A stretch of 63,760 nt of DNA, filler included, from Asterionella formosa (taxonomy: Eukaryota): the NCBI GenBank assembly GCA_002256025.1. It is 12 parts of 12 records of this genome, joined end to end, with 100 filler letters (N's around TTAATTAATTAA, not from the genome) between each part and the next. Parts side by side here need not be neighbours in the genome. Positions count along the whole stretch, not along the records: positions 42,609 to 47,824 come from NKIB01013167.1; 11 more parts are not named here. One strand, 5' to 3'. A model generated the notes under the pieces. That model searched no databases. It had not been told where the DNA came from and was given only the letters and a program-made list of their open reading frames with translations. The first letter of the stretch is position 1. Each line of letters begins with the position of its first letter. Shown piece after piece: positions 2,501 through 63,760 of this stretch. Position numbers and translations under genes: made by a program.

Positions 2501-2850
2501 GCCTTGTAAATATGAAGGGATTAGACGTCAGAAGAAGTCGGGATTTTAAATATATCTGTCTGATCATTTTGCTTGAGCTGCATTGGCTTTTGCCTTTCAG
2601 TAGAGTGGCGGCATACATTTCTCACGTGGTTACTATTACGACTTTTTCTGTCCTTGTCGCTCCTCGTGCAACCAGAGCAGTTTTTTTGCATTAACATGTG
2701 TATACCTACTCTTTACAAGGCAATTGAGGAGATGGAAAGCACTAAAAGGATTTAACGACGTACTTCAGGTGCATCCAATACCAATATTAGAACGGTGTGA
2801 AACTCGTGTCGCTATCTATAATATAAAGAGGCCTTTTTCAAGCATTTTTT

Positions 2851-5234: not shown

Positions 5235-5334
5235 NNNNNNNNNNNNNNNNNNNNNNNNNNNNNNNNNNNNNNNNNNNNTTAATTAATTAANNNNNNNNNN
5301 NNNNNNNNNNNNNNNNNNNNNNNNNNNNNNNNNN
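5235..5334. other. Artificial scaffold linker (N44-TTAATTAATTAA-N44); first of 11
   Basis: Identical 100-nt linkers also at 10568-10667, 15898-15997, 21227-21326, 26550-26649, 31872-31971, 37191-37290, 42509-42608, 47825-47924, 53138-53237 and 58451-58550. The 12-mer puts stops in all six frames. Confidence 0.98.
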
Positions 5335-6499: not shown

Positions 6500-7340
6500 T
6501 TGGCAACTGTCAGCCAAGAGCAGCCATGGTATGCCAACATATATTGTCCATCCGAGTTTTCGAATGCATTTAGCCATGATAACTTTTGCTCCTTAACACT
6601 ATCTCACCACCCTTGTCACAGATTTTTCTTTATCCTTTGGCTGCACTGACCCAGGTTACTCAATGCCTTCACCTGCGAGTTCAGCCAAGCAGGTTGGTGT
6701 CAAGACAACAGCTCACCTCAACCCCGATTTTTTTCTCACATCCTCCGCCAATCATACTTTCTTCATTAATGAAGTCGAGGTAGCTATATTAACGTCAGGT
6801 GGCGCAGGCTTATATATAGATTGATGATGCTAGTTCCCTTTTGCTTTTTCCACTGATTTTGATCCCTTGGGCATTCAAGTCAAGAAACAACTCATTTAGA
6901 TTTCTGGAGGTTTTGGTCAGTAGCACCATACAGCAACAATCAACAGATCATGGCGGCTGTTCTCTATTTTCTCTAGCAAGCACGTGACATACAAGAGGGT
7001 CTGGGATCATTGGGGAAAAATTAGGCTCCTCTGTGTTTGCCCCCGCCAGTTTGGCATTCTACCATTGCTACCTCTCAATCAATACTAGTAAAATGAAAAC
7101 CGTAATTAGCTAGATGAAATGTGACTTCCGGTTTCTAATATTTTACATTGCACTACTGAAACTTGAATCCATAAATGTTCATTCAACTTGTGCTTCTTGC
7201 ATTTTTGCAGTATAGACTGGCTGGTGGGGCGATAGGCCAAAGTGTCTGGCTTTTCATGAACATCTACAAAGTAGTGCTTTTGTCGAGTTTTGTGTCCAAA
7301 CCCAACTGCTGCCATCCATTGAACCATTCCAGATACATCA
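6500..7340 (-). pseudogene. Degenerate IS630/Tc1-mariner-related DDE transposase relic
   Basis: Broken frames retain WMAAVGF...KHYFVDVHEKPDTLAYR (7327-7230) and DFINEES...LTPTCLAELAGEGIE (about 6780-6660), matching the YxDGHE..D...YR and PK.H.EL..IE..W motifs. Many stops and frameshifts. Confidence 0.6.
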
Positions 7341-7599
7341 AAGAATACGCTCGTGTTGTGTAAGGCAAGGAACTAGTACGACGAAAAAGGAAATCTGATG
7401 AGACAAGAAAATTACGAAACCAGAATCACTCTGTTACTTCTTTGTGCATATCGCCTGCTATGCATGCTGCGTTTCAATTCTAAATGGATTATGTTCTCAT
7501 TAGAGAGACGATATAACATAGATCTAGATTATGCTGTTTTATAGCTAATGGATGTTGTTTAGCTATGATTGAGGTTGTAACACTGATCGATGATCCGGT

Positions 7600-8065
7600 G
7601 ACAGACCGGAAATATTCGTGTTGTGTGATGAGCCATTTCGTTTTCATTGGATTTCTTTTCAAGCTCTTAACGGATTGCATATGAACATACCGTGCACTGT
7701 AGATGATGATTAATCAAAGACACATGATGACTTGAACGACAAATGAAGATTTTATCACAAACACTCATTCTTCTCGACATGGCTGTTTTGTCGTTGTTGC
7801 AAGAATCAGAGTGAGGACTGGAGAGGATGATGAACCATACCACATTACTTTAGCTGGTACATTATCCTACCAAGAAATTTAAATAAAGGAACCTAATAGA
7901 AACAATACATATAATAATGAAATATACATAGTCAAAAGGGTTACTATTTAAATTATAAGGGTATTATATTCAAAATTATTAGATGATAGCTATAACAAAA
8001 AATTATGATCAGATGATCATAATTCTATGATGCATCATAGGAATATGATGGTTTTTATTTGCAGA
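7600..8065. repeat. Diverged copy of the putative Plavaka-element terminal region
   Basis: CATTACTTTAGCTGGTACATTATCCTACCAAGAAAT...GTCAAAAGGGTTACTATTTAAATTA...TTTTTATTTGCAGA is shared with 26336-26549 and 59110-59330. Confidence 0.85.
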
Positions 8066-8163
8066 CAAGACTGACTTTGCAAATCATCATCGGTAAGTAA
8101 GAGTAATGTTTTCCTAAATAACTTAAGGAACATTATTTTCATCGAAAGATGGCCTATCACGTC

Positions 8164-8238
8164 CGGCAAGCATGAGATGATCCATTGGGAGTGCCTCGAA
8201 ACTGAAAAGGTGCGCTACTGGCGGACCTTCCTAGTACT
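8164..8238. repeat. Dispersed repeat of about 80 bp (second copy at about 54100-54184)
   Basis: ATGAGATGATCCATTGGGAGTGC(C/G)TCGAAAC...GGTGCGC...GCGGACCTTCC(T/A)AGTAC occurs in two unrelated scaffolds. Confidence 0.8.
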
Positions 8239-8681
8239 CCCTCTGGGCGAAAACAATTGCATCAAATGTAAAAATTTATCTGGGGCCATTTCGACTCATG
8301 CGACTTTCTCCGGCTGAATTGCCCTAATGAGCAAAATCACATAAGCTACAGCTCCAAGTATAATATATATGTAGTTAATTTAAAATTGGCGACTATGTAT
8401 CGAAAAAACTGTTTTGGACTTTTTTGATTTGATGCAATTGTTTTCACCCAGAGGGAGTACCAGGTATTTGGTAAAGTAGTATGGCACCTGGTACCCCCTT
8501 GTACCTGGTACCAGCAATGTGTGTAACAGTACCTGTTCCTCCGAGTACCCATAAATACTCTCTCATACTAGCTATGCGCATGTTACCAGGTACTCCAGGT
8601 ACCAGGAAGGTTCCGTAAAACACGGTTTTTACTTAAATCCAGACTAAGCTAGATTTCTGGACTACTGGATCTTCCAAGCAA

Positions 8682-8754
8682 GCAAGTTGTGGTAATTGTC
8701 TTGATAATTAAACTTTAGCTAATTGTTTATTTCAGCCAAATGACCGCAGCTTGC
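8682..8754. mobile_element. MITE-like element, GCAAGTTGCGG family (internally deleted copy)
   Basis: Imperfect TIRs GCAAGTTGTGGTAAT...ATGACCGCAGCTTGC; homologous to 37325-37414. Confidence 0.6.
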
Positions 8755-9065
8755 AGGTGCTACCTGGTACCTGGTACTGTACAGTGTAGGAGTAGTCTAC
8801 ATGGTACTGGACTACCATGTTGCTTGTAGGAAGTATCATCGTCTCTGGTATTATTTTGCCACCACAAGGTACCAGGCACCAGGTACTACCAGCTACCAGG
8901 TAGAGTAGCAGGAACATACCGGTAGACTGCCTCGTGTATTGCTTCTACAGTATGAAAAGCAAGAGTGAGACAGGAGTCCTGAAAAATCGATCTCGCTTGC
9001 TTTCCTTGTTGTGCATGTGGTGCTATAATTCATAAAATGTGTACCCGGTATATGATATGATAGTG

Positions 9066-9652
9066 AACAAAATATAAACAAGCACTGAACATATCACGAA
9101 AAAAGCATATGCTGCTGGACGCAGAGAAATACAGTTACCCAATGTTTACTTCTACTAATGTGTGCTCTATAAATTTATTACCTGCCCTGTTAGAAATACA
9201 TACTGCTGGTAGCAGTAGACAGCCTCCCGTAAATCCATTCACTAAAGTTCGGGCACATACATACATGTTGGTCATACGTGTTATGTCCATGCTATTGTTC
9301 CTGTTCACTATTGAATGATGATACCAGAAGCATGATCCGATGAAGTCCTTCCCAGAAGTATAATTAGGATCCAAGGCAAAGGAGCGGTAAGATCTGAAAA
9401 AATATTAAACAAAATATAAACAAGCACTGAACATGTCACGACAAAAGCATATGCTGCTGGACACAGAGAAATACACTTACCAAATGTTTACTTCTACTAA
9501 TTTGTGCTCTATAAATTTATTACCTGCCCTGTTAGAAATACATACTGCTGGTAGCAGTAGGCAGCCTCCCATAAATCTATTCACTCAAGTTCGGGCACAT
9601 ACATACATGTTGGTCCTGTTCACTATTGAATGATGATACCAGAGGCATGCTC
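9066..9652. repeat. Direct duplication of about 270 bp (9066-9338 and 9408-9652)
   Basis: Both copies start AACAAAATATAAACAAGCACTGAACAT and end TTGAATGATGATACCAGA. The second has a short internal deletion. Confidence 0.9.
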
Positions 9653-10798
9653 CAATATTCCTATGTTACGATCATAGCTTAATATAAATTAAAATTTGAT
9701 GGACTGCAATGGCTATATATCATTAGGCCTTCTCAAATGTGCACAACCTGATGAACTGACTACATTTGCTAGACCCATGCCATTGCAAGTGTGAAATGTA
9801 GACCAAGTAATTATAGAGAAACAAGCAACCACCATCTCTGGGGAGCACCTGATGGTAGGGGAGAATCCATTAGCTTAGCAACATGCTCATGCATTGGTTC
9901 AGGCATACATCACTAGTCAAGTATAATGTATTTGCGATAAAGTGAAAGTCCTACCTTTTACATTCTTCAGCTTTCGGTTCAGGAATTATCTCATGTAACT
10001 TATCATTGTACAATGAGGAGACTGTGAAACTGCATATATCATATGATGACCATGCATATTCCTCCTGCACCTGACCAAGATGGATCAGCCAATTTTCATT
10101 CCATTTTGAAAATAGCGATACAAGGTACTTCTATCATCCTTTTGCTTTCATGTTCCCAAATCGCTTTGAATTTTACTTTTACCCCAATTACCAGTAAGCA
10201 AATTCAATTGTACCTCGGGTCACATTGATCTATTTCATACCTTCATTCAATCGAAATGAGCACGGTATTTTATGAATAAATATAAAGCTATAGATAAATA
10301 CGGAGGTAATGCATTGAGTGTGGTTACATATTTATAATTTTATTGCCTTTTACATGATGCTGTTGAGAAAGCAACTTGACAATTGTACAACATTGATCTT
10401 TGTTTTTGCACTCACTGTGTTACGAATAACTTGAACGCCCTCCTTCGCATTTCATGTACATTTCAGTCCATGTGTACGTTTCCCTGTAACTACCTACGAA
10501 ATCAGCGAGGTTGATCCTCCCCGCCGAGCAAAGTCCATTGGTGATCCAACTTCACCATCATCACCCTNNNNNNNNNNNNNNNNNNNNNNNNNNNNNNNNN
10601 NNNNNNNNNNNTTAATTAATTAANNNNNNNNNNNNNNNNNNNNNNNNNNNNNNNNNNNNNNNNNNNNGATCCTTCTATGGGGATACAGTTAGAGGGTGCA
10701 CAAAAAGTTCAACTAATTATTATGAAGTAAGCAGATGGCTGATGTACGACTGCATTGTTGCAAACTTTTATCATGACTTTCTAAGCGTCAAAATCCAT

Positions 10799-11212
10799 TT
10801 ACACCTTCAAAATCTGACCGCGGATCTCACCAGAGGGGCAGGTCGTCGTCTTGATAAGAACGGCAAGGTTTCCCGCGTTTAGTGAAGAGATTTGGGCGGA
10901 AGTAAGGGTCTTGCATTCTTTCTTGATTGGGTCGGTCGAAAGGGCGACAGCGAAGACTTCGGCGGCTCCAATGGCGGAAGTGACAATGGAGGCGCCAGTG
11001 TGTGCGCCAGATCCTGAAGCAAGCTTGCCAACAGAGAGACGCATGCACAAACTGGTACCAGTGAGAACCATTACACCATTTCCGATGGTAGTAGATGCCG
11101 CGCATCCAGCTTTAACTTGGGCAGGGTTCATGGGGACCTGGTACACAGTCTGTGCGTTCACAGGGGAAAGGATGGCAGAGAGAAGGAGGGTGGCGATAAC
11201 AGAAAGCTTCAT
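10799..11212 (-). CDS. Secreted single-domain CHRD-like protein (137 aa)
   Basis: Signal peptide MKLSVIATLLLSAILSPVNA. The C-terminus LNAGNLAVLIKTTTCPSGEIRGQI matches the CHRD P.GEIRGQI signature. Intronless. Confidence 0.8.
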   Translation of the reverse strand: MKLSVIATLLLSAILSPVNAQTVYQVPMNPAQVKAGCAASTTIGNGVMVLTGTSLCMRLSVGKLASGSGAHTGASIVTSAIGAAEVFAVALSTDPIKKECKTLTSAQISSLNAGNLAVLIKTTTCPSGEIRGQILKV

Positions 11213-12613
11213 GGTGGTAGTATTTAGTAGTGATAAGGTGAATTGATAATTTGCCAATGTTGTAAATTGTGAGATGATAAAGAATCGCACCTCGCGGTCA
11301 GTTGATTTTCGTCTACATACTGCCTTACAATGCTTTCCCTTAAAACACACGACGCAGCAGTATCATGTACGCAGTACTCAGTGTATAACAATGTATTCTT
11401 TTGGTAAAGTCAATACCACCGGCAAGTTCTACCAGCAGCAGGAAGCAACGATGAAGCAAAGGAAGGAAGTTTAACTTCTTTCAGTTTCAGAAAATAAGAA
11501 GGAATTTGGTTTAGCGGAGTTTTTTGTTACCTCTGCAAAAGACAAGTACATAATGTTTCGGTGTATACTATCATAAACATGATGTTGGTTTGTTGCTTGT
11601 TACCTGGTACCAGGTACCAGGTACTGGCTGGTGACACACTCTAGCCGGGTCCAGTTACCAGGTACCTGGTACTTGGAGTTGGTACTGGTACCCTGGTAGT
11701 CAGTCAAACAACCGGTATCAGCATTTATTAGTTACATACGGGTCTATGAATGAAATATACTTAACAATGGACTGTTCAGTATACCGGTATGGAATGCTAT
11801 TTACCCGTTACCCCAAACGTCGTCCTGTGGTTCTCATCGTTTTTAGAGAGATTACCTATCGGTATTTGAGCGATAGCTTTATATTTATGCCGGTATAGGA
11901 ACTCCATCGAAAGGTCGTATGTACATTATATATTGAATGAACCTATATGTCGCTGGCGCGAGCATCGACCATGGACTAAAACGTATGTCGCGTACTCATG
12001 CTTGGAGACCATTCTTGTTCGAAGGTCTAAACTCTACGTAGAATACATGGACCGGTATGCAGACTACCCGAACCTTGTACTCCATGCTCCATTGACACCC
12101 TTTTAAACTCTGCGGGTGATCGCTCAACCACAAACTTCTGGCAATTACTAAAAACGTGAACTGCCGATGACGATCATGTACATGGTGTGAGAAACAAACC
12201 TCTCTCATTTTTATCCTCTACCAGAACATCACTTGTCTTGCAGAGGTAGCAAAAACTCCGCTAAACCGGATTCCTTCTTATTTTCTGAAACTGAAAGAAG
12301 TTGAACTTCCTGCAGAATCACTTTCGCTTGTATAAGATGTTGCTTCCTGCTGCTGGTAGAACTTGTCGGTAGTATTGACTTTACCAAAAGACCACAGAGT
12401 TATGTACTGAGTACTGCGTACATGATACTGCTGCGTCGTGTGTTTTAAAGGAAAGCAATGTACGGCAGTAGACGAAAAAGCAACTGACCACGAAGTGCCT
12501 GATATCATCTCACAATTTACAACATTGGCAAATTATCAATTCACCGTTTCACTACTAACTACTACCACCATGAAGCTTTCTGTTATCGCCGCCCTCCTTC
12601 TCTCTGTCCTTTC
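11165..12613. repeat. Inverted duplication (arms about 11165-11547 and 12231-12613) covering upstream region and signal peptide of both CHRD genes
   Basis: AAAACACACGACGCAGCAGTATCATGTACGCAGTACTCAG at about 11342 is reverse-complemented at about 12407-12446. High identity continues through ATGAAGCTTTCTGTTATCGCC. Confidence 0.9.
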
Positions 12614-12953
12614 CGTTGATGCTGTGTATTTCTCTTATTTGAACCCAGGCCAAACAACCGCTGCCTGTACCACCGCATCCGCCCTTGGAAATGCTGTCCT
12701 CACTCTATCAGGCACCAGTTTGTGCATGAAATTGGGACTTGCCAAGCTCAACGGTACTGAAACCTCCTCCTCTATCCAGAGCGGAACTACCCAGATTGCC
12801 ACCCTCCCTGCCGGCAAACTCAAGACTGGATGTGTCACTCTCTCCTCCGCGAATGTTGCCAGCCTCAACGCCGGAAGTCTTTATTTCAACATCAAGACAA
12901 GTGCTTGCCCCAATGGAGAAACTCGTGGACGCATCTTCCCTGCCCCTGTTTAA
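12570..12953 (+). CDS. Secreted single-domain CHRD-like protein (127 aa), paralog of 10799-11212
   Basis: Signal peptide MKLSVIAALLLSVLSVDA; C-terminus LNAGSLYFNIKTSACPNGETRGRI; the same four Cys as the paralog. Confidence 0.8.
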   Translation: MKLSVIAALLLSVLSVDAVYFSYLNPGQTTAACTTASALGNAVLTLSGTSLCMKLGLAKLNGTETSSSIQSGTTQIATLPAGKLKTGCVTLSSANVASLNAGSLYFNIKTSACPNGETRGRIFPAPV

Positions 12954-13337
12954 GCAGTCATCAAGCATCTGAGTCAGCTTTATTTGTATGCCACAAAGGA
13001 TGCTTATATAAATCTAGCATAAAGGCCCTCGCCTCAGAGTAGCCTTTTTACCCTTACAATTTACCAAAATGTGCTTAGTCTAGAATTATATGTATGTTGC
13101 GAATCCTATCTCACTCGTCGAAACAAAAAGAAGCTCTACGTGGAACACGGAAATATTGTGTACAATACATCAGTAGCAAGGAAGTATTTAACCTTCATAA
13201 CATTTGCTAGCTTTTGACTTTTCCATTCAGAACCTTCTAACAGCATCTCAGTCGCTCTTTACATGCTACTACAGACAGGTAAGCTATTCTAACACAAGCA
13301 TCTCACGAATGACTTTTGTGAAAAAGTGAGGTAGTAT

Positions 13338-13949
13338 TCATCCCTTGGGTAATTCATATTCAGTCACTGGATCCCATGATTGTGTGGAAGAAGGAATAAA
13401 GGGGGGCCGTTGTTTTCGAAAGAATAGTTTGGGACGTTGGCAACTCAGTGGACAAAGTCTGGTCGTACTGGAGCCACAATATTCACAAAAAATAGGAATG
13501 ACATAAGATCCTGGCGCAACAACCAATGTATCGTCTTGATCTGTATGATCAGCTTCGAAAAAGTGAAATAAGGTGATTGGCTGATGACAGGGCTAAAATA
13601 GAATCGACAAAGCGTAAATGTACGTATACCGGTAGTTCGTTGTAAGAAATGGGCAGAGACACTTGTTAGTACGTGCATGTCTTCTTTGTTCTTGTTTCCT
13701 TCTCGAATCACCCAAATTTCTTACCATAAGGAATTGATCCATGTCTGTTTCACATGTAGGTAGACACGGTTCATGCATGCATGGCTGATCAACAGCATCG
13801 TACACCTTCTCGAAGGCTTCTCGTTGCAAGTCACCCATTTGTTTAAGGTATTTGGAGAGCGACGATGATCCCGACGATGCGTCTTGCATTCCTTTCTGAG
13901 ATGTAATGTCGTCGTCGCTTTGCTGCTTTTGCTGTTCGCTGGACGTCAT
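13338..13949 (-). CDS. Hypothetical 159-aa protein with Cys-rich motifs
   Basis: Exon 13949-13725, intron 13724-13593 (GTAAGA...TTTTAG), exon 13592-13338, joined in phase 0. Contains PCMHEPCLPTC and FCEYCGSSTTRLCPLSCQRPKLFF. Confidence 0.7.
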
Positions 13950-15266
13950 CGTATTGCTCAAAGTATTGATGGAGTAAAACAGATAGAGATGAGGAGTGAT
14001 ATGGTTCAAGCAATTGCGACAAACCTATCTCAGATTGCGTCTTGTTCCTTTCTTCGCTCTTTCGTTGCAGTTATTTGGTACAATGATGACTGCAGACAAC
14101 AGGGAAAGAGATATCGGTCAACAGTTAAGAACCAAAGTAACAGTAGCAACGCAATGAATTGGCTGTTGATTTTCAATAAATATATATTATTATTTATGTG
14201 AGAGACGTTTGTTCATTATTTCTGTTCTTTTAACAGGATACCGTATACCGTTATATGTTCTAGGCAATCGCAATACTGCAATGGTATACCGGTATATTTC
14301 GTCAATAATTTTTTTATACCGCATTGGTACTAACGGCAGCCTTTAGCTATACAGGATTGTATTCATTGCGCTCTATAATGGCACAGAAAGTGGGGCGGTG
14401 GAGAGTTTGGGGGGTCCCTAGGGTTCAAGGGTGTGCGGCTGACAAAAAGACAAGTCTTGTTGTATGCACCATAAGGATGAATAAAAATGTTACTAATTGT
14501 TTCCATTCATATGGGCATGAGAGCGATCATTGGATAGCTTTAATGTACTGTAAGATTCAATTGAAATTTTTTCAGTAAACATTACATAGGATTAACCACC
14601 AGTTACTAGTGCAGAAGAAGTCAGTCTTACTAGTTTCGCATGCTGGGCAACCCTTTAACTATTGGGGAATCACTTTATGATTAAAAAATGAAATCACTTG
14701 TAACACACTTTCTAAGACCTTGGATTTTTACGTTTTTCACATCTCTAGTTTTGTTAACGTGGGTGAGACCCCAACCATCTTTTGCGAAAGCTGATTGCCT
14801 TTTGCCGAATTGTTAGAGTAGACGCCAACCACCTAGGAAGGTGGAAAAGGCTGTTTGTTTGTGTTTTGGGTGCTACCCACTTTTCTTGAGCACCAGCAGG
14901 CAAGAACTTACAGGATGGTGAGGACCAAGGGAGTTGAAGCACACCCAGTGCATTTGTTGTTACTAGCTTGATCATCATTGTTGAATTTAATGCCATTCCT
15001 TGTCTCCAACTATGATCATCCAGGCGAAGATTATACCAATCCAACAGCATTTTTTTGATTGCGCTGCTCCTACAATGAAGAATATGAGGCCCCAAACAAC
15101 GTTTTCCTTGCTTGCTGGCCACCTGACCCCTGAGTAGCGTCATTAACACTATTGTCGCATGGCTGCCTGTACACAGATGTTGTCTCCGCAAAATGTTGCT
15201 TTTATTTGTCTCGAAATTTCAAAAGTCAAGAATGGTGTTGCTTTCACCATGGCATCTCAAATGCAC

Positions 15267-15294
15267 CTGTCTGTCTGTCTGTCTGTCTGTCTGT
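15267..15294. repeat. (CTGT)7 microsatellite
   Basis: Read directly from the sequence. Confidence 0.95.
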
Positions 15295-16079
15295 GATTCA
15301 AGGATAGAGTGCAGGGAGCGTTAGTGGATGTTGTTGGCAACAAGAAATATCAGCAATCAGCCAATGCATTCTTTTCAACTGACAATTTCCAATTGACAAT
15401 CTTCTCACACAAGTCTGACTTCCATCCACCATGCAAACATGTACTGCCAAAAGGACAATTCTCTATCCCAATTCAACACTTACCTTCTATGGAGTTTCGC
15501 AACAATGCGCGCTGTAACCACGTGCTGTACTGCCAGTGCAAACATCACCATTGGATGATGCATGATGATGGTGTGTTCGACTTTTATGAGTTTTCATAAT
15601 ATTTGTTTAAATCTAAATCTATTTAGTAGAAAATTATAGTGATCACATTTTATTAAATTTACATAGCAATATGATACCACTATAGCCCGAATTTCGATTC
15701 ATGATGTATGCAGTATGCATATTAGCTTGTTTTGATGAAAATAAATTTTGTCAAAAGTATAGAATTTCTGGTCAGCATTTTCAGGGCTGCATCCTGTGGT
15801 TACAGAGGGGGTGCTCAAGAAATTCTTATCAGAAATTCTTTACTATTGATAACATTACATAATCAAGGTACCTGAATGAGATCCAAACAATTTCTCCNNN
15901 NNNNNNNNNNNNNNNNNNNNNNNNNNNNNNNNNNNNNNNNNTTAATTAATTAANNNNNNNNNNNNNNNNNNNNNNNNNNNNNNNNNNNNNNNNNNNNTTG
16001 GGGACGACACAAATGAGATTTAGAGTTAGGAGCTAAATAAAAAATTGAATCCCGGTGATTGCATTTTTCATCATTCTCC

Positions 16080-17780
16080 CTATTTTTTCGTCCTTTCGGT
16101 TGACTGAGCTATTGCGAGAAGTTGTTCTTGTAATTTTTCGAAACAATTATTGACCGCTTCCGAAGTCTTCCCTGTTATGAAAATGTATGGCTTTTTGGAG
16201 CTGCACACGCCGACATTGCAATTCGTGACTTGTTGGAACTTTATAATTTCTTTGCCTTTATGGCCGGTAAAAATTCGAACAACATTTTGATGCTTCGGTG
16301 GAAGAAGAAATATTGCCATCCAAGTATACCGTTGCAAGTCTGGCGGTAATAGCGTCCAGACAGCCTTGTTGCTATAGCGGAAAAACTCATCACAGTTTTT
16401 GTTTGCCATGAAAATATCATAGAGAAATCGATGGATATCTCTTTTGTCATCCACAGACGTTGTCGCTTCTTTTAGTATACTCGCCGTTGCTCCATGGAGG
16501 TCCTCTCGAGATGCACCCTCAACATGAATCACGAGCCCCAACAATTCGTTGTCACTGGGACGCACCAAGTTTCCACTCATCCATATTAGACATCCGGTCT
16601 GATCTTCTAATGGGCTTCGCCATTGTGATTCTTTGGGACGGAAATTATCTATTACCGGCGGGACAAGCATGATCAGACCAGTTAGAAGTATTAGCAATCC
16701 AAACCAGCTATTTAAGTTGCGAAAAAAGCTCTTACCTCTGAGCTTGGCTGGGTTCACCCAATTTGGAAGTATTATTTGTCGGTATGCAAGGTGCAATTCA
16801 CAATTAATTCTACGCTCGCTACTGAGCTCTCCTTGCTTCTGTGTAGATTGGGCCCCCCATGGTGCTGCCAAGGAATCTTGTTCAGCTCCATCATCATCGT
16901 CAGAATCCAGCAGTTCAATAATAATTTGTTCCTTCGCTTCTGAAGTACCTAGATCGCTCGTTGGTAGTTGTGGAGGTAGTTCATTCATCAATATAGGTGC
17001 TGTTTTGCACTTCGTGACCGGGCCTGTATTGCTGCCTTCAGGGTAAATTTCTATTCCATCAGGTGGAATAGATTCTTCCTTTACTGGTTGGATCGATTTA
17101 GATTCGAGAAACTGAATATCACTACTAGCAACCATCAATACTGGTGCTGCTACGTTCTCCATGACCGAACTGCTTTGAGGGTGATATTCAATCATTTCCG
17201 TTGGAATCGATTCTGCCTTGACGGATTGTAACGATGCTGAGTCGATATATTGTTCATTACGAGGCTCTATCATCGACGTAACTTCTACCATGGATTCCAG
17301 CCTGAACCGTTTGGAAGCCTTCTCATCATCTCGCCGGAACGTCAATCGATGAACTTGAACGTCGTTCCACATGGGTCCACCGATGATTTGAATGGCATAA
17401 AGTGCAGGTGCCGAGACGGATTCTTGGTGACTCCCCATTACTATTGCAGCCTCGCCATCGCACCACACTGGTGTTTGTGAAACGAAATGTACGTCGCTTT
17501 GCTTCGCCAACAAAGTTTCGGGGGTTTGATTCGATGAAATTGTGTATACATTTTCCCGGTCTTGACTGAGAATATTGATGGCAACTGATAGAACCGTCCC
17601 AATAGTGACTTTGGGAAACGGACTTGAGTCTTCGAAATGCAAAACAGTGGTCCCAATGGGAAAGCGTTGCTTTTCCGCTTGCTCGGGAGTCATTGCCAAG
17701 AGGTATTTCATGTCAATGTGCTGTTGAACTACTCCGTAGCTAGAACTCTTTTGAGTGTCACTTTCGATTGCGGCCGCCAT
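16080..17780 (-). CDS. KH-domain protein with N-terminal Tudor/SH3-like beta domains
   Basis: 566-codon ORF with a probable in-frame 87-nt intron 16735-16649 (GTAAGA...CTAAC...AATAG). C-terminal VRIFTGHKGKEIIKFQQVTNCNV...IFITG carries the KH GxxG loop. Confidence 0.7.
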   Translation of the reverse strand: MAAAIESDTQKSSSYGVVQQHIDMKYLLAMTPEQAEKQRFPIGTTVLHFEDSSPFPKVTIGTVLSVAINILSQDRENVYTISSNQTPETLLAKQSDVHFVSQTPVWCDGEAAIVMGSHQESVSAPALYAIQIIGGPMWNDVQVHRLTFRRDDEKASKRFRLESMVEVTSMIEPRNEQYIDSASLQSVKAESIPTEMIEYHPQSSSVMENVAAPVLMVASSDIQFLESKSIQPVKEESIPPDGIEIYPEGSNTGPVTKCKTAPILMNELPPQLPTSDLGTSEAKEQIIIELLDSDDDDGAEQDSLAAPWGAQSTQKQGELSSERRINCELHLAYRQIILPNWVNPAKLRGKSFFRNLNSWFGLLILLTGLIMLVPPVIDNFRPKESQWRSPLEDQTGCLIWMSGNLVRPSDNELLGLVIHVEGASREDLHGATASILKEATTSVDDKRDIHRFLYDIFMANKNCDEFFRYSNKAVWTLLPPDLQRYTWMAIFLLPPKHQNVVRIFTGHKGKEIIKFQQVTNCNVGVCSSKKPYIFITGKTSEAVNNCFEKLQEQLLAIAQSTERTKK

Positions 17781-18427
17781 GTTGCTGGCGCTGTAGATCT
17801 ACTCCTGAATCAACTGTAGGCAAGTCTACAACTATTGACGATTGAGAGCACAGAACTGAAAGTCACGAGGTTGTCCAAATACGGTGCAGCAAAACAACTA
17901 GAATTGAATGTACGCACAAATACATACCGGTACACTGGAGACCAATATATAGAAGTCCAAACATCAGACAGTACTATCGGTATGTCAGCATGCTGGGTGC
18001 TTTCGATGGAATTTTTCAAAAATTCGGTGAGGATTGAATACATGTATAATGCTTTCACTGCATTATTGGACTACCGGTACAGGGAATTGCGTATTAGTAC
18101 CTTACCGGTAGTAAGTTGCATCAGTTTTGAAATTGTGTGGTACGCGACTCCGCAATTTTTTGGAGACGCAATTGTTATGTTGGGTTCGACTCCCACACTC
18201 CTTATCATCCCGCACGGTCTTGCCTGGCATGCAAGAAACAGGGAGTTGCCCCGTTGCAATTATCAAGACGGCGATGACATAAATTAATAAATAATAGTTT
18301 GTCATCAAAAATGATTTTGCTGCTGCTGTGTGAGGCGAAGGGAAACAATCGTTTCTTGTATGTTATACATACATGCTGACATTAAAGTAAAGGGACCCTC
18401 AAGGCCAAGAAAGCACATCATTGCGGC

Positions 18428-20018
18428 ATGACGGCAGACAATCTTTGGAATAATCCGGGGGCTATTGCTGCGACACTAGCTGCGTCTACCTTCGCCACTC
18501 TCATCTGGTGGCAGAGATCCTCGTCCCGGCGCAAGTTCAAGAAACAGAAACAGCGATGGTCCATTACTTCCACTGTCATGGGAGTCGGCGCCTTTCCTCC
18601 CGCAATCAACGTCCCGGAACCGGTCATTAATGCTTGCATACTCTTTCAGGACTGCCCATCCGTTCACGACATCGTACAGCAAGTTGTACCGAAAATGCTG
18701 GAGTACAAGCGCATGGCGACCATTCCCATGCCACACACGAGTTCGGACCGGTCTTGTGTTGGATTAAATCCTTCCGACTTGGTGCGCCGCGTGGAAATAG
18801 ATGGAGACGATGACACCATGTACGAAACGGTCACTGAATACTTGCATGAACCCCTGTCGTCGGGGCGAGGACACCTTCCGTGGTGGGAGATTTTGATTAT
18901 TGATGTACGTTGTTTTTCGTTACCAGGGTACCATGTGTGTGTGTGATGCCTCCTGTTCTGGTCCCTTACAGAATTGCAATATTTTCACTACTGTTTAGAA
19001 TAAAGGAAGTGGGAAGAGCTGCGCACTATGGAGAGTTCATCACTGTTTGGCCGACGGATTGAGTATGGTAGCTTTGACCGAGCAGATCATTAGGTACGCC
19101 GACGGATCTCCCATGGAACCCCTCATACCCGAAGGAATGCGCAAAAAATTCAAGATAAAGAAACCGTGGTACCAGCTCTTCTTTGAAGTGCTCGTCAGTG
19201 CTATCAAGATTCTCACCATGCCGGCATCCAACTACGATCATCCCACAGTCTTCTCAAAGTGCATGAATAAGGACTTGATTCACAATAGAAATAGAGAATT
19301 GGTGCGTTTTGTAGACACACCTCTCGATTTTGTCAAGGAGATCAAGAATGCAGCCAACGTGACCATCAACGATGTCTTGTACACATGTCTTTCGCAAGCG
19401 ATTCATATGTACCTCGTTCGCGAGGAGTGCCCCATTCTCGCAGAACAGGGATCCAAACTGCTCTGTCGATCACTCATGCCGGTGGGATTTCCTCGAAACA
19501 AGGAGGCCGTCCTCGACAAGGAACAGGCATTAGGAAACAAGTGGTGTTTCATTGAAACTGATTTCTTTGTCGGTCAAACTGACATTATGGAACGTCTGAA
19601 ATTGGTACATCAACAAATGACGGCCTTGAAAACGTCCCCAACTGCTGTTGTACAGTTAAATCTGCAAAATATGCTCCCCACAGTTTTGCCGCGCTCATTC
19701 ACGCAGCAAGCCACTTTTGATATTTTCTCTCGTCGGTCTGTTATTTTTTCGAATGTGCCGGGACCTACTAAACCATGCTTATTTGCGAGCAAGGAAGTAA
19801 TTGGAGTGCAAATGTTTTTCTCAAACCTGATTCCACAGACTGGCTTTATCAGTTACCGGGGACAAATTTTCGGAAACATTTGTCTCGACCCAGAGGGAAT
19901 TCGCAATTGCAAATCCATTTCCATCCTTTACAGTCAAGCCTTGGTGCTAATGGCAGAGAGAGTGAATGTTGCCATTCCTAACATTGTTGCCCAGCACGCG
20001 AAGCAACCCATGCTATGA
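18428..20018 (+). CDS. Wax ester synthase/diacylglycerol acyltransferase (WS/DGAT family)
   Basis: Exon 18428-18904, intron 18905-18998, exon 18999-20018. Catalytic HHCLADG (HHxxxDG), LPWWE, TINDV, GNKW and FSNVPGP motifs; N-terminal hydrophobic anchor. Confidence 0.9.
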
Positions 20019-39792: not shown

Positions 39793-40453
39793 TACCTGGT
39801 CTACCCGAGTGAAACCTTTGCTAAATACAATAGAAAGGGATATGAAGGCGGGAACTAGAATTTTCCTGGAGATGATCATTAATAACGGTAGAACCGTCCA
39901 AGCAAATCTCATCTATTANNNNNNNNNNNNNNNNNNNNNNNNNNNNNNNNNNNNNNNNNNNNNNNNNNNNNNNNNNNNNNNNNNNNNNNNNNNNNNNNNN
40001 NNNNNNNNNNNNNNNNNNNNNNNNNNNNNNNNNNNNNNNNNNNNNNNNNNNNNNNNNNNNNNNNNNNNNNNNNNNNNNNNNNNNNNNNNNNNNNNNNNNN
40101 NNNNNNNNNNNNNNNNNNNNNTTTGGTTTTCTAAAATTACCATCAAGTGCTGTCTTGTTTGCTTAATGCAGGTATAATTTAAAAAGAAAAATACATTGCA
40201 TGTCTGTCTCTGAATATGATGAGATGTCGCCATTTTTTTCACACTGGTTTGCAGCGACGTTGCTCACTTTTCAATCCCATAGTTCAAGCTAGGTTGTATC
40301 TGATTGGCTATTGTCAGCGATCGATGAGGAGAATTCATCTGGTGCGATGCAGGGTACAATTGTAGGATAATTCTGGTACGCACTTCCAAAGAAAGAACAA
40401 ATCAAGATAATATACAGAAACATTTTGTTAGACTTGAAAGGTTAGTCCAACAT

Positions 40454-43254: not shown

Positions 43255-43979
43255 TCATTTCCCACGGAGATTCAAATTGCGAAGTGCTCCATTACCATTT
43301 TCTTGAACACCATAATTGGATGAGAAATTTCGCATAGCAGACTCAATTAGGGCTTTTCCACCAGCATCGGATATCGTCACCTTGTTGCTGCCATTATTCA
43401 AAGCCAAGTTCCAAAGTGCTCCACAACCTTTTTCTTGCACCCTAGCATTGGAAGAATGAGTCCTCATCGCAGACAGAATTGTAGAAATACCTCCAGCTTC
43501 AGCAATAATCACCTTATTGTTTTCATTATTGTCAGCCAAGTTCCAAAATGCTGAACAACCTTGGAATTGTACATTAGCATTGGATGAATAATTATTCATA
43601 GCTGCCAGAATCATAGGGATACCTCCTGCAGCAGCAATTGCCACTTGTTGTTTTCATTACTATCAGCCAAGTCATCAAGTGCTGCACAACCATACTCTTG
43701 CACAGAAGCATTGGAGGAATGAGTCATCATTGCAGACAGAATCATAGTGATACCTCCTGCGGCAGCAATCGTCACCTTGTTCTTGTCATTCAAAGCCAAG
43801 TTATTGCAGACAGAATCATAGTGATACCTCCTGCGGCAGCAATTGTCACTCTGTTTTTGTCATTATTATAAGCCAAGGACATAAGTGCTCCACAACCATA
43901 TCCTTGCACAGTAGCATTGGAGGAATGAGTCTTCATTGCAGACAGAATCGTAGTGATACCTCCTGCATCAGCAATCATC
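43255..43979 (-). pseudogene. Armadillo-repeat (aardvark-like) array with frameshifts
   Basis: 42-aa units IAxAGGIxxILSAMxxHSSNAxVQxxGCGALxNLA split over three frames. A partial repeat is duplicated at about 43730-43870. The 3' end and stop are intact. Confidence 0.85.
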
Positions 43980-44049
43980 ACGCAGACACAAACGTAGAGC
44001 AGGAAGCCTGTGGGATTTTTCTTCAGCTCTTGTGTGAAATAAAATGCAA

Positions 44050-44919
44050 ATGAGTTATCTGGGGGAACTGAACCATTGAATGTGCCATTGAAAGAATTGG
44101 AGGACAAACCTAGAGCAATTTGACTTTTCAAGAGTCCAATCTCTGTGGGAATTCTGCCATTGAAAGATTTGTCATACAAAGATAGATAAGTGAGACTTGT
44201 CAAGAGTCCAATCTCTCTGGGAAGTGTTCCAGTAAACATATTCGAGGACAAAGGTAGAGTAGTGACACTTGTCAATAGTCCAATCTCTGTGGGAAGTGTA
44301 CCAATGAAAGAATTGCTAAACAAAGATAGATCAGCAAGAGTCCAATCTCTGTGGGAATTGTGCCAACGAAAGAATTGGAGGGCAAATATAGAGAAGTGAG
44401 ACTTGTCAACCAAAAATAGCACCAAGGCAGTCCGCACTTGACGTTTACATTGAGCCCTTTCTTCTGCTTCAATGTCAACAACAGAGGCACTGGCAAGTTC
44501 TGGATCAACCAGCACTAGCTCAGCATTGAATAGTGTTGCACGTTCTAGCTGGCCATGTTCACTCCTAATCTCGTTGGTGTCAAAATCAAAATCAACATTA
44601 CCATTCACAAAGGAATAGTTCTGTGAAGATGTCCATAATCCCTGTACTGGAAACGCACCAGGAAATGAATTAACTCCGAGATTCAAACATTCTGTTTCCT
44701 TTTTCCAACCAAATGCTTTTAGCATTGTCAATGTTGTCTTGAATGTAATGAGAGTTGTCTATTGTTTATTCGAGGTACTTTCTTTGGTTTCTTTGGTTTA
44801 TTCGAGCGACTTTCTGGTTGGTTCTTGCTCGTGTTAAAACTCCTTTTCTCGTCGTTGTCGTTATTGAAAAGTAATCTATCATACTTTTTTCTAGAGTGAC
44901 GATACCTGTTTCTACACAC
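44050..44919 (-). pseudogene. Degenerate LRR receptor-like gene (plant-type extracellular LRRs)
   Basis: Repeats GTLPTEIGLLTSLTxLxLxxNxF, preceded by PGAFPVQG...AELV...hydrophobic segment. Frameshift near 44340-44400 and internal deletions. Confidence 0.75.
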
Positions 44920-45400
44920 ATATTATCTTGTGAAGGTTATGAAGAGAGTTGTGTCTTGCAGTAATTTCCGCAAGCCAATCAAATCATGCTTTGATTTTTT
45001 TGCATCATGCATGATGAGCAAAAAGTTCCTTTGCTCACACATACCAGTAGGGGTGCATTGTCAAGAAACCAAAAGGCATGCAACGCATCCTTTTGCAGCG
45101 TCGTCGATACAAACAACTAATTCTTAGTTTAAAATGCTTGTTATTTATACCCTAACCCTAACCCTGATAAGATTATGAGTTATTGGATTAATTGCAATAT
45201 AACCAGACTACTCCGGGACAATAAGGTTTGCATACAGTAAAGCCCAAAGAATACCAAACACAACGATAAAGGCGACACAAAACCCAAGATCATCCAATAT
45301 TGTATTGGGAATAAACAAGACCATGTAATAGCCTTGAAATTCTCCACCCACAAGAAATGACATTTAACATTCAAAATGCAGAAAGAATACAAAAAACCAA

Positions 45401-47824
45401 TCATTGATATATACCTTGAAATTTCTTTTTCACCCATATGATACTACCAGCATGGTCCAAAACAGGAACCAGGTGGTTCTTCCACTCAGAATGCTTTTCC
45501 TTCTGAGCCTTTTGAGAAATTACTTCATATGATGCTCCAACAATTTCAGTAAGTTTCTTCCTATCCAATTCAAGAATAGAATTATTTTGAGTAGCACTTA
45601 TGCCTGTGAGGAATTCTTCAGTCCTTGCGATGAGCTCTTTTGTAAGTGGATCAACTATCATATCCAAGACAAATTTCTCCATTGATTCTATTGGAAAATG
45701 AATCCCAGTGGTTACTAAGCCAGCAGATACAGCAGCTCTGAGAAGTGACATTGCACATTTGATGGCAGGTGCAATACATGTCACCCATTGCTTGGTAACC
45801 TTTGTAGTAATACAGCTTTCTGTTACAACATCAAATGAATGCTGACAAACAAAGAAAATCTGCACTTCAGTTTTTATCCAGTTTTTTGGCCATTTCCAGA
45901 TTGGTTCCCTTTTTTCATTGAGTGGTACAATATAGACAATTCTGGGACACTTTGCATCCACTCCAGCTGTAAGATTGGCAAGGGCCTGTGTTGTTCGTGA
46001 CAATTGACTGGCAACACGAGTGATCTGCTTCAGAATCTCTTTTTGGTCCTGAAAGAGTTTGGACCAGTTATCATTTTCAGTTTGTTTCTTCAAGTGAAGT
46101 TCATACAGATTGCTGGGCAAGATTTGGCTCTTATACATGTCTGTATTACAATATAACTTGTCACAACCAATGATTGGGCATCGAATGGTCATATCACCAA
46201 GATGCGTAATGACATGACCCTCAAAGCATTGTTGGCATGTGGAATGGTTTTGGCAAATGGAAATGGGAGTAGAAAGTTTGGCACACAAGACACAATTCAC
46301 ACTTGTTGTTCCAGTTTTTCCACCACAGGATGCTTTGGGACTTCCACCAACATCATGATATGTTTGACTTACAAATCGACCTATTTTTTCAACCAATTCA
46401 ATAGTCTTTGGCCTCTTATTGGGAGTGTATTGAATGCAACGAATGGCTAATTCGCACACAGAGGCCAGAATTCCATCTTCCCATTCCTCTGCAAGAGTAT
46501 CAACATCGTCCACCAATGAGTAACCTGCACACTCTTGAATGTAGCGATCATAGAAATCTCCCAACTTATTCTTATCATTTTGGAGGCAGCCTGTCACAAG
46601 CTCGATCATGACAATGCCAAACGAGAAAACATCACATGATGCTTCAAATGTCTTATGTCCACGAGAATACCATGGACATGTGTAGCCAGGTGTCCCAAAG
46701 ACTCCACCACTTGATGTGTTCCGAACTGAAAAAGAAATTGCACTGGTTGAAATGGAGTCATCAACAGGCACAAACTTGGCTAAACCACAATCAATCAGCT
46801 TGGCAGTATAGTTTCGTTCAAGACAGATATTAGCTGACTTTATGTCACGATGAAACAGAATGAAGTTGTCACTTTTCTCGGTATGAAGGCAGTGGATGGC
46901 ACGAATAATGTCAAACATGATTCGAAGTCGTCTCTCACTTGAGAGACTTGCCATGCTTTGTTCACTTGCATAAAATGTATCAAGCGAACCCATGGATGCA
47001 AACTCATACACCAGGTATTGAGAAGGCGAACCAGGGGACAAATGATAGCCATACAAAGATACAATATGGGGGTGTCGGAACCTCCTTAATGCCTGAAATA
47101 GTAAAAGAGATGAATGAGAAACATAAAGAATTGAAATGACATCCAATAGATGATACCACACATGAGCTCACCTCCAATTCAATTTTGAAAGTTTTGCTAA
47201 CTTCCTGCACTAAATCGTTCTCAACAGCGATATTGAAAAGAATGCGTTTAACAGCAAAATACCGATTGTCATCCTTGCCTTTGTAGACAGCACCAAAACC
47301 GCCTTCACCAAGTTTGAAGGCATCATCAAAGTTGTTTGTACAATAAGTAATGAATTCCACAGGAAGCTCGATTGGTCTTGAATTCACATTTTCCATGGCC
47401 TCCTTCATTTTCGACCGGCCTATGGAAATTGGATCAGTGGGATTGTTACTGCTTGGTGTTGGAGTTGTTGGGGAAGAAGGATGTGCTGCATTTGTTGTTG
47501 TTTTTGATGATGTTGGCTGAGTTGTGTTCGCTGCTGTTGGTTTGCGGTTCTTGTTTCCATCAATGAGTTTGTTTATATCATTTAGTAAATCGTCACCAAC
47601 ACCAATTAAATTACCTGCGAGATCAAGTGTAGTCAAGACAGTATTGACCTTGAGAGCCTCTGCAATGGCCTTGGCTCCGCCATCACCAATTGAATTATAA
47701 CTAAGATAAAGTGTAGTCAAGACAGTATTGACCTTGAGAGTCTCTGCAATGGCCTTGGCTCCGTCATCACCAATTGAATTATTATAGAGATAAAGTGTAG
47801 TCAAGACAGTATTGACCTTGAGAG
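45401..47824 (-). CDS. LRR (RI/NLRC3-type) - IRAK/Pelle-like kinase - RING - coiled coil - C-terminal domain protein, 5' truncated
   Basis: 28-aa LRRs encoded by near-identical 84-nt units; intron 47171-47093 in phase 0. Kinase motifs GEGGFGAVYKG, AVKR, HRDIKSAN, DCG, GTPGY and DVFSFG. RING CVLC..C..H..CQQC..CPIIGC; tail CPRIVYIVP...IFFVCQHS. Confidence 0.88.
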
Positions 47825-58095: not shown

Positions 58096-58550
58096 TCTGT
58101 GCTCGGTTGTTAATGGCGATGACCAGAATGAGATGACAGGCCTTGCTTGGTGTATTATCAGACTAACAAGGGAATTTGCTCGAAGTATGGAGTCAGAATC
58201 AGTTGATAGATTGTCAGTACCAGGTACCTGGTACCACAGTGAAACGGGTTGAGTACTGGTACCAGGTACCTGGTACCTGGTACTCCAAACCAGGTTTGTA
58301 GTTAACGTACATTCCCTGTGCAGAGGCGCTGGGCTGTTTGTACCTGGTACATGGTACCAGGTACAGATTTTCACTGATGGGACATGGTATTGTAGGTACC
58401 AGGTACCACCTACCTGGTACCGTAGTCTGCCTAGATTTTAGTTGACCGGGNNNNNNNNNNNNNNNNNNNNNNNNNNNNNNNNNNNNNNNNNNNNTTAATT
58501 AATTAANNNNNNNNNNNNNNNNNNNNNNNNNNNNNNNNNNNNNNNNNNNN

Positions 58551-62771: not shown

Positions 62772-63760
62772 CTATGACATTCAGGAAGCATTATGACTTT
62801 CAGGAAATTCCTATAAATGTCAGGAAATGACTATGACTATCAGGAAATGCCTATGACTTTCAGGAAAACTTAAGGAAACTTCAGGAAATGTGTAAGGAAA
62901 TTTCAGGAAATGCATGGAATTTCCTGAAGTCTCCAAAATTAGTCCTTATGTTTCCTGACATTTCCTGAAGTTTCCTTAGTTTTCCTGAAGCGATACCTCC
63001 AATGTCAGCAATCATCAACTGGTTGTCAACATTCAAAGCCAAGTTACGAAGTGTTGCACAACCAGATTCCTGGACATTAGGATTCTCTGGATGTTTCTTC
63101 ATTGCAACCACAATCGCAGCGATACCTCCTTCATCAGCAATCCGCCCCTTGTTGCCATCATTTAAAGCCAAGTTCCAAAGTGCTCCACAACCATATTCTT
63201 GGACATAAGGAAACTCTGGATGAATCTTCATTGCAGACACAATAGAAGTGATACCTCCTGCTTCAGCAATTGTCATCTGGTTGTCGCGATTCTCAGCCAA
63301 CTTCATAAGTGCTCCACAACCAGAGTATTGAACATAAGCATCCTTGTTTAGATGTTTATAAGGAAACTTCAGGAAATGCGTAAGGAAATTTCAGGAAATG
63401 CATGGAATTTCCTGAAGTCTCCAAAATTAGTCCTTATGTTTCCTGACATTTCCTGAAGTTTCCTTAAGTTTTCCTGAAGCGATACCTCCATTGTCAGCAA
63501 TCATCAACTGGTTGTCAACATTCAAAGCCAAGTTACGAAGTGTTGCACAACCAGATTCCTGGACATTAGGATTCTCTGGATGTTTCTTCATTGCAACCAC
63601 AATCGCAGCGATACCTCCTTCATCAGCAATCCGCCCCTTGTTGCCATCATTTAAAGCCAAGTTCCAAAGTGCTCCACAACCATATTCTTGGACATAAGGA
63701 AACTCTGGATGAATCTTCATTGCAGACACAATAGAAGTGATACCTCCTGCTTCAGCAATT
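62772..63760 (-). repeat. Tandem 489-bp units of armadillo-repeat fragment plus TCAGGAAA-rich quasi-palindrome
   Basis: Identical ORFs at 63002-63208 and 63491-63697 (offset 489). ARM repeats IAxxGGI..IV.AMK.HP....VQ..GC.AL.NLA are cut after GGIA by TCAGGAAA/TTTCCTGA repeats. Confidence 0.85.

Follow-up and report, generated by a model that had tools for sequence, protein, structure and literature searches.

A putative sensor kinase gene of Asterionella formosa that joins leucine-rich repeats, an IRAK-like kinase, a RING1-like finger and a widespread C-terminal domain in one chain

Gene model and assembly context

We analysed a stretch of 63,760 nucleotides from the Asterionella formosa assembly GCA_002256025.1, referred to below as the window, and describe here a gene located on its minus strand at 45401-47824. 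This segment is the 3' part (2.4 kb) of a real, spliced and transcribed eukaryotic gene of a freshwater alga. The product is one soluble chain consisting of an array of leucine-rich repeats (LRRs) of the Pfam LRR_6 type, a linker rich in Thr and Pro, a kinase, a zinc finger, a long helix and a C-terminal domain, which we call the tail. This single-chain order had been proposed in an earlier reading made from the DNA alone (the sequence-only reading), and it is confirmed by Pfam, by comparison with PDB, by AlphaFold2 models and by fold matches.

The gene lies on the contig at 42609-47824 (NKIB01013167.1) and runs off its end. Because this 5.2-kb contig stops inside the array of ribonuclease-inhibitor (RI)-type LRRs, the 5' end of the gene is lost. 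The window itself consists of 12 contigs of about 5.2-5.3 kb each, placed in steps of about 5.32 kb and apparently sorted by size, and the spacers between them have the form N44 + TTAATTAATTAA + N44 (e.g. 5235-5334, 10568-10667 and so on to 58451-58550). Note that genes on different contigs of the window are not neighbours, and that the sequence past 47824 is not adjacent to the gene. Two more runs of N occur in the window, at 1490-1875 and 39919-40121.

From the contig end to the TGA stop codon at 45401-45403, the open frame comprises 780 codons across one intron and is uninterrupted; exon 1 (47172-47822) contributes 217 codons, and exon 2 (45401-47092) contributes 563 codons and the stop, which is at the same place in the close relatives P0001-P0003. 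The intron, of 79 nucleotides with GT..AG ends (47093-47171), lies inside the kinase and was absent from the sequence-only description. When the reading frame crosses it, the kinase motif ELEALRRFRHPHIV is restored and continues as ...KIELEALRRFRHPHIVSLYGY.

To check the splice, we aligned contigs from four runs, three of them metatranscriptomes and one DNA, at 90% likeness. The joint 47091>47171 (cut +1) was found in one contig of RNA run X16, where the shorter side has 43 letters, and in one contig of RNA run X17, where it has 20; since joints with a side shorter than 30 letters can derive from relatives, X16 is the stronger witness. The exact 79-base skip was absent from the contigs of RNA run X13 and DNA run X1, and X13 also holds an unspliced piece spanning the intron. 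The LRRs and the kinase N-lobe share exon 1, which is joined to exon 2 in the RNA contigs. The gene stretch is present in 20 of the 24 listed runs, six of which are recorded as RNA; the 20 runs are labelled as metagenomes (freshwater, lake-water, algae or unspecified), in one case as a coded organism, or not at all.

The loci found in metagenomes are three short contigs of 1.1-2.1 kb, none of which extends the gene to its 5' end. L002 (1-2066), from a marine metagenome, shows 81% DNA identity to the window over 1633 nucleotides and contains LRR_6 units, linker, kinase and an intron at the position of that in the window gene. Its exon 1 is spread over three reading frames (3-302, 257-487 and 450-803), its last 500 bases hold an unrelated open reading frame (ORF) on the other strand, and the contig name gives a coverage of 0.67; L002 may be error-prone, chimeric or a pseudogene.

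The LRR array

On the contig, the array (47571-47822, minus strand) comprises two full units (47739-47822 and 47655-47738) and a terminal unit (47571-47654) whose second half is divergent, and it continues upstream past 47824. Tandem Repeats Finder reports a period of 84 at 47619-47824, with 2.5 copies and 94% matches, and the 28-residue repeats score 59.5 bits with Pfam LRR_6, for which the cutoff is 23.4 (E=1.5e-16). The two full units differ at 6 of 84 nucleotides, in codons 12 (silent), 13, 14, 20 and 28. According to the sequence-only reading, the units vary mainly in the xLxLxx strand. The variants that it listed (YLYN, YLSY and DLAG) are indeed present, and the basis for the pattern is the terminal unit together with two of the four amino-acid changes that separate the full units. 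L002 agrees with this pattern, as its strand residues also differ on the same scaffold (TLNLGWNS, TIYLDRNS and IFSFDGNS).

In all four runs, at 90% likeness, the bins that cover the LRRs (47565-47824) exceed the remainder of the gene in depth by a factor of 50-100. In run X1, the depth is about 2.5 million on the LRR units versus 1,000-20,000 on the tail, and 13,117 of the 43,665 aligned contigs fit two places. The depth of these bins does not equal copy number and is taken here as a hint alone, namely that near-identical LRR units are very common and form a large repeat family, which would explain why the assembly breaks at the array.

The 28-residue repeats matching LRR_6 resemble those of NLRC3 and other proteins with RI-type LRRs. 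In contrast to NLRC3-type proteins, NACHT is found neither in the visible part of the gene nor in two full-length homologues, P0041 (1317 aa) and P0097 (1101 aa), which have the domain order of the window gene (LRR_6, kinase, finger and tail); the search for NACHT and NB-ARC in these two proteins used E<=1e-5, and the window gene is seen without its 5' end. P0097 begins with methionine and leads straight into LRRs, and by eye it has no signal peptide or transmembrane helix. Similarly, no transmembrane helix is visible in the LRR-kinase part of the window gene, as the sequence-only reading had stated: the maximal Kyte-Doolittle mean over 19 residues is 1.1 in exon 1, and reaches 1.66 at a kinase segment that we take to be the buried alpha-F helix.

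The kinase

Between the LRRs and the kinase, the translation gives a flexible, low-complexity linker (47367-47570) in which Thr, Pro, Ser and Asn abound and no Pfam family was found. The kinase N-lobe occupies the end of exon 1 (47172-47366) and the C-lobe the start of exon 2 (46388-47092), where Pfam Pkinase is matched at E=2.7e-25. The pre-kinase motif TNNF, the GEGGFG loop, the AVK lysine, the alpha-C glutamate and HRDIKSAN are all present. At the DFG position there is DCG, and GTPGYTCPW places CPW at the APE position. The sequence-only reading had described the catalytic motifs as intact except for DCG; this applies to the loop, the lysine, the glutamate and HRDIKSAN, while CPW deviates as well. 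Among the 47 tail-bearing homologues in which HxD..K..N and DxG can be recognised, 39 have DCG, six DFG and two DYG. DCG is, on these counts, a trait of the family, and the kinase is probably active despite it.

We assigned the kinase to a family by ranking sequence matches in PDB, as a proxy for a kinase phylogeny. For the C-lobe, 53 of the best 60 rows are named as plant receptor-like kinases (RLKs), plant receptor-like cytoplasmic kinases (RLCKs) or IRAK1/4, two are Raf-like CTR1, and five have non-committal names; examples are RIPK (7.7e-22), BIK1 (1e-19) and IRAK1 (4.5e-18), in addition to PBL2, SYMRK and BRI1. The N-lobe matches IRAK1 (1.2e-6), a plant lectin RLK and IRAK4, the last in 26 of 29 rows; IRAK1 and IRAK4 together account for 27 of 29. 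The N-lobe alignment covers the pre-kinase motif, with CTNNFDDAFKLGEGGFGAVYKG in the window against TNNFDE...MGEGGFGVVYKG in IRAK4. Both lobes are therefore closest to IRAK1/4 and plant RLK/RLCK among the PDB matches, which bears out the earlier description of the kinase as IRAK/Pelle-like and makes it a Ser/Thr kinase of the IRAK/Pelle/RLK type. The Tyr before the hinge (LVYEF) is presumably the gatekeeper typical of the IRAK/Pelle/RLK family.

The likeness to IRAK1/IRAK4, Pelle and the plant RLK/RLCK proteins (BIK1, PBL2, RIPK, BRI1 and BAK1) thus consists of the kinase domain in both lobes, including TNNF...GEGGFG. In contrast to these proteins, the window gene has no death domain (no Pfam Death match was found, and what precedes the kinase is the LRR_6 repeats and the linker), no transmembrane segment and no ectodomain. 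Instead, RI-type LRRs are located directly on the N-terminal side, and the finger, helix and tail on the C-terminal side; DCG and CPW are further differences. A kinome study of the diatom T. pseudonana (PMC3019232) states that no IRAK-like proteins were detected there.

The zinc finger and the long helix

The zinc finger (46163-46294) has eight ligands and is of the C3HC4 type ending in C-x4-C, with the spacing C-x2-C-x9-C-x2-H-x2-C-x2-C-x15-C-x4-C. In the homologue rows, these ligands are conserved in 66/69, 68/70, 49/71, 68/71, 63/71, 69/71, 76/81 and 81/83 cases, in this order. Pfam gives weak rows for the finger (zf-RING_14, E=0.047). We therefore relied on structure: an AlphaFold2 model of finger, helix and tail (a 325-aa query with 48 sequences) has a mean predicted local distance difference test (pLDDT) of 84.2 and a predicted template modelling score (pTM) of 0.66. 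When this model was compared with 48,161 chains by VIA-align, the ten best rows were all RING1 domains of RBR ligases with Z of 6.3-8.2, versus 4.2-5.6 for canonical RINGs. In particular, Z was 8.2 for ARIH2 (rmsd 3.2 A over 79 residues), 8.2 for RNF144A, 8.1 for HOIL-1L, 7.2 for HOIP RING1 and 6.3-7.0 for parkin. The top rows of Foldseek were the same RBR RING1 proteins, with a probability of 0.96-1.00 and E of 0.1-0.5. The claim of an RBR-RING1-like finger thus holds in both searches, and the finger may have E3 activity.

The finger is followed by a single long helix of 49 residues (45968-46114), which corresponds to residues 89-137 of the query and has block pLDDT values of 88-97; a coiled coil had been proposed at this place, and a long helix between finger and tail is what the model contains. 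No IBR was matched by Pfam after the finger at E<=10, and the model continues from the helix into an alpha/beta domain, with no RING2/Rcat; therefore, the protein is not an RBR ligase. Compared with the RBR ligases (ARIH1/2, parkin, HOIP, HOIL-1, RNF144A and RNF216), the likeness consists of the spacing ending in CP..GC and of a model closest to RING1 and the helix that follows it. The difference is that a long helix and a domain without zinc ligands replace IBR and RING2/Rcat.

TRAF6 and the TRIM proteins consist of a RING, a coiled coil and a C-terminal recognition domain, and act downstream of IRAK kinases. The window gene has the same order of finger, long helix and C-terminal globular domain, and adds fusion to an IRAK-type kinase. 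It differs in that Pfam at E<=10 gives no match to MATH/TRAF-C, B-box or SPRY, save an ANCHR-like B-box row at E=0.43 that is far under the cutoff, and in that the tail is an alpha/beta domain of five strands and seven helices. A homodimer prediction for helix and tail scored 0.00; this prediction was made without an alignment, and the fold of the chain itself was uncertain in it.

The tail domain

The tail (45404-45952) covers residues 143-325 of the query. It is an alpha/beta domain of about 185 residues that is usually C-terminal and usually comes after a long helix. With phmmer, run on 1.84 billion representatives, 192 proteins were matched at E<=1e-3, of which 64 reach E<=1e-10 and six E<=1e-30, and a search for longer proteins with the tail-only alignment gave two matches. 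Characteristic motifs of the family are CPR(L/I)..h.P, hYFVCxHS, WV..hAP.h and WVKK, all of which are present in the tail of the window gene. The most constant positions are P145 (131/131), C178 (131/132), F176 (124/132), W198 (126/133), P204 (130/133) and W299 (123/129), followed by C144 (106/131) and H180 (86/132). Close relatives are 83-95% identical to the window gene across the tail. AlphaFold2 modelled the tail alone from 83 sequences with a pLDDT of 86.2 and a pTM of 0.80; one of its helices is hydrophobic and has 23 residues.

Despite this confident fold, no database match was found. The tail matches no Pfam family at E<=10, and comparison with PDB by sequence and by profile gave no credible relative. 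PADLOC and NCBIfam, applied to nine tails, returned a row with E=0.011 and a further two with E of 0.03-0.05, which fall far short of any cutoff, and the ESM Atlas gave no usable match with either the window tail or that of P0034. By fold, the best VIA match has Z 4.5 (a Rap regulator, in its helical part only), and the best Foldseek matches have E=0.48 with a probability of 0.04 in PDB and E=0.14 in BFVD. A search of the full-text literature found no publication that describes the tail or the architecture by title or abstract, which is weak evidence of its being unpublished. The tail defines a large, undescribed and mobile domain family of at least 192 protein clusters.

Fusion partners and relatives

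To identify the partners of the tail, we scanned with Pfam the 65 homologues of at least 500 aa. A kinase is present in 52 of them: alone in 42, with ankyrin in seven, with LRR_6 in two (P0041 and P0097) and with Kelch in one. Note that many of the kinase-only homologues start inside the kinase and hence are fragments. Of the others, six have ankyrin only, two have RING+Deltex-DTC, one has TIR, one (P0022) has a C2 domain after the tail, one (P0131) has a Ras/Roc-type GTPase, ankyrin and two tails, and two have nothing recognisable. A further 31 proteins (30 mid-size homologues and P0275) include one with tail, U-box and Sel1, one with LRR and tail, three with ankyrin and four with a kinase only, and 22 give nothing at E<=1e-6. 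In P0098 (456 aa), the tail is N-terminal and is followed by a U-box and Sel1 repeats, and in P0101 and P0104, it comes after two RING+Deltex-DTC modules in each protein. The tail is thus repeatedly fused to domains of E3 ligases. In P0131 (1744 aa), a second GTPase-like region is present in addition to the Ras/Roc-type GTPase, the ankyrin repeats and the two tails; this protein alone connects the tail with Roc-type GTPases.

For the tail core, we calculated a tree with FastTree from those rows that have 140 or more aligned residues, 115 in all; shorter rows, such as P0125, were dropped. The architectures interleave on this tree, and ankyrin-kinase alone needs at least four changes. The RING-DTC proteins P0104 and P0101 fall with kinases, P0104 beside P0136 (support 96) and P0101 in a group with P0103 (95); U-box protein P0098 stands beside P0142 (98), and the window gene groups with P0001-P0003 (97). 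Since the architectures interleave, partner swapping around a constant tail is real at the level of the family. Of the paralogues and N-terminal swaps that the sequence-only reading looked to, the swaps are found across homologues, in a multi-member family in which LRR, ankyrin and Kelch are exchanged; within the window, tblastn matched the gene itself only. The finger is missing from at least 20 of the tail proteins that extend 150 residues or more upstream of the tail, so that the tail does not depend on the finger.

Other features of the window

Downstream of the LRR-kinase gene, on the same contig and strand, a second repeat-rich gene adjoins it at 43255-44758. It encodes 24-residue plant-type LRRs and then armadillo repeats (Pfam Arm 4.5e-10, ARM_LRRK2 1.1e-7), is spread over several reading frames, and has tandem repeats with periods of 72, 132 and 206. 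In the spacer between the two genes, the telomere-like hexamer ACCCTA occurs in 2.8 copies at 45149-45165. On another contig, the ORF at 62884-63390 (minus strand) has the same Pfam pair, Arm and Atx10homo_assoc, as the armadillo gene at 43255-43653, and the two may belong to the same armadillo-repeat family. One contig carries two ORFs with a CHRD domain, at 10802-11362 (minus strand) and 12426-12950 (plus strand). Overall, Pfam matched 33 ORFs of the other contigs to general eukaryotic families, none of them recognisably restricted to diatoms.

Interpretation and alternatives

We tentatively favour, at a little short of an even chance, the reading that the gene encodes a cytosolic sensor-kinase whose output module is TRAF/TRIM-like and uses a new mobile domain as its base, and for which a surveillance (immune-type) use is the most likely. 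In such a protein, the LRR array would bind a ligand or partner in the cytosol, and binding would alter the activity or the clustering of the kinase. Finger, helix and tail would form a module for output and assembly, organised as in TRAF or TRIM proteins, in which the finger would dock an E2 and the tail would bring the protein to its partners, either via other tail-bearing proteins or by binding a target or a membrane. One chain would then hold the steps that animals and plants split among a receptor, an IRAK/RLCK kinase and a RING/U-box ligase. The fused cytosolic sensor-kinase-ligase of the sequence-only reading is retained here in its fused architecture and in having no visible transmembrane segment; without IBR and RING2, the finger does not make it an RBR ligase. 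That the LRR array recombines, as the same reading proposed, is a conjecture.

In animals, death-fold domains (in IRAK, MyD88, ankyrins, PIDD1 and DAPK1) are adaptor domains with similar kinds of partner. The partners of the tail (IRAK-type kinase, TIR, ankyrin, LRR and Roc-type GTPase) are alike, and it is because these partners, including E3 ligases, are the kinds that death-fold domains have that a recruitment role of the tail is favoured. However, the tail has about 185 residues and an alpha/beta fold, whereas death folds are six-helix bundles, and no death-fold chain occurs among its fold matches. By this analogy, the tail might be a recruitment domain, a protist counterpart of the death fold, and the window gene a whole receptor-IRAK-TRAF6 pathway in one chain, which we regard as a doubtful idea.

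Several points weigh against a surveillance receptor with kinase and ligase output. The gene is known from its 3' part, and the 5' part may add domains or a signal peptide; the variability of the LRRs is based on two full units. DCG for DFG and CPW for APE weaken the case for kinase activity, and a RING1 of the RBR type may be a poor E3 when neither IBR nor RING2 accompanies it. The finger is absent from at least 20 tail proteins, as counted above. RI-type LRRs, IRAK/RLK kinases and RING fingers also serve in signalling other than immunity.

Accepting the same architecture, the gene might instead serve ordinary signalling, such as mate or kin recognition or the response to environmental or developmental cues, rather than sensing pathogens; this is a real possibility, although an unlikely one. 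In the diatom Pseudo-nitzschia multistriata (PMC5485032), annotated LRR receptor-like kinases respond to sexual cues: ten listed genes change expression in sexual reproduction, two of them with Ka:Ks>1. In addition, the window gene is represented among RNA contigs from natural freshwater communities whose run records, as far as shown, mention no infection, and no result of our analysis ties it to infection. However, the tail family includes fusions to TIR and to Deltex-type modules, which are typical of immune signalling, and it is a large family in which the N-terminal sensor repeats have been swapped repeatedly. In the haptophyte G. huxleyi, TIR, LRR and NACHT genes are up in virus-resistant cells (PMC12489294). 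Such domains are, as reported there, used in algal defence; that result is silent on the window gene.

The tail could also be an executioner that targets or permeabilises membranes, with activation of the kinase exposing the hydrophobic helix, much as if RIPK3 and MLKL were combined in one chain. The most conserved element of the tail is this 23-residue helix (WV..hAP.hK..h.hhR.A...G); in eight proteins, its Kyte-Doolittle mean over 19 residues is 1.26-2.04, which places it among the top three hydrophobic segments of each, and the tail is fused in P0022 to the lipid-binding C2 domain. However, the helix sits within a compact alpha/beta domain in both confident models and contains two conserved basic residues, and no pore-former or MLKL/HeLo-like chain occurs among the fold matches, the best of which has the Z of 4.5 given above. 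We therefore consider this role improbable.

A further proposal is that finger and tail form a new thioester-forming E3 of an RBR/RCR-like kind, in which the finger docks E2~Ub and the Cys in FVCxHS of the tail takes the ubiquitin. Cys178 is all but invariant, a His two residues on is kept in 86 of 132 rows, and a Cys-x-His arrangement also marks the RBR catalytic domain; moreover, the tail is fused to E2-binding domains of three kinds, twice to RING-DTC, once to a U-box and in about 70 rows to a RING1-like finger. Against this, the tail also occurs without any E2-binding domain (with ankyrin only, with TIR or with Ras/Roc), at least nine kinase+tail proteins have no finger, and one row in three has another residue in place of the His. 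Ile or Val takes the place of the second cysteine, C144, in 23 of 131 rows, a substitution that suggests burial of this position and not reactivity. On balance, the proposal is very unlikely.

The sequence-only reading had likened the tail to the C-terminal region of Roco/COR-type proteins, which would make the gene a relative of the Roco family. The Roco proteins (LRRK2, DAPK1 and the Dictyostelium Roco kinases) are likewise large soluble proteins in which a single chain carries LRR or ankyrin repeats and a TKL-type kinase, and the tail-bearing homologue P0131, described above, has its Ras/Roc-type GTPase at the N-terminus. Nevertheless, the claim fails. Neither Roc nor COR is matched by Pfam in the 780 visible residues, in the tail even at E<=10, and the LRRs run straight into the linker and kinase with no Roc-COR pair between them; P0131 itself has no COR match at E<=1e-5. 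When the tail profile was aligned by hhalign with the COR-bearing LRRK-like protein P0272, the probability was 0.08%; with P0131, this profile recovers the tail at 98.3%. The fold matches of the tail include no LRRK or Roco chain either, which alone is weak evidence. The tail is not COR, and we give descent from the Roco family next to no credence.

An origin of the gene as an assembly chimera, or its decay into a pseudogene, is extremely unlikely: although the contig end falls within a repeat, the LRR units match far more metagenome contigs than the rest of the gene, and exon 1 of L002 lies in three frames with an unrelated ORF at its end, the 780 codons are uninterrupted, the RNA contigs are spliced, P0041, P0097 and L002 repeat the domain order, and the tail keeps its high identity to close relatives.

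Significance

IRAK/Pelle/RLK kinases, LRR sensors and RING/U-box ligases form the core of innate immunity in animals and plants, where they are separate proteins. With all three in one chain of a unicellular alga, the cytosolic sensor-kinase favoured here would offer a compact system in which to study the wiring and the age of such pathways. If the tail is indeed a recruitment domain, it would wire IRAK-type kinases, TIR, Deltex and U-box ligases, ankyrin, LRR and Kelch sensors, and a Roc-type GTPase into one network.

The tail is the more durable and the most valuable result: a domain with a confident fold and no database match that is found recombined, again and again, with kinases, TIR, E3 ligases and sensor repeats. 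Its characterisation would annotate parts of many protist proteins that are now called hypothetical, and could mark candidate immune or surveillance genes in algae.

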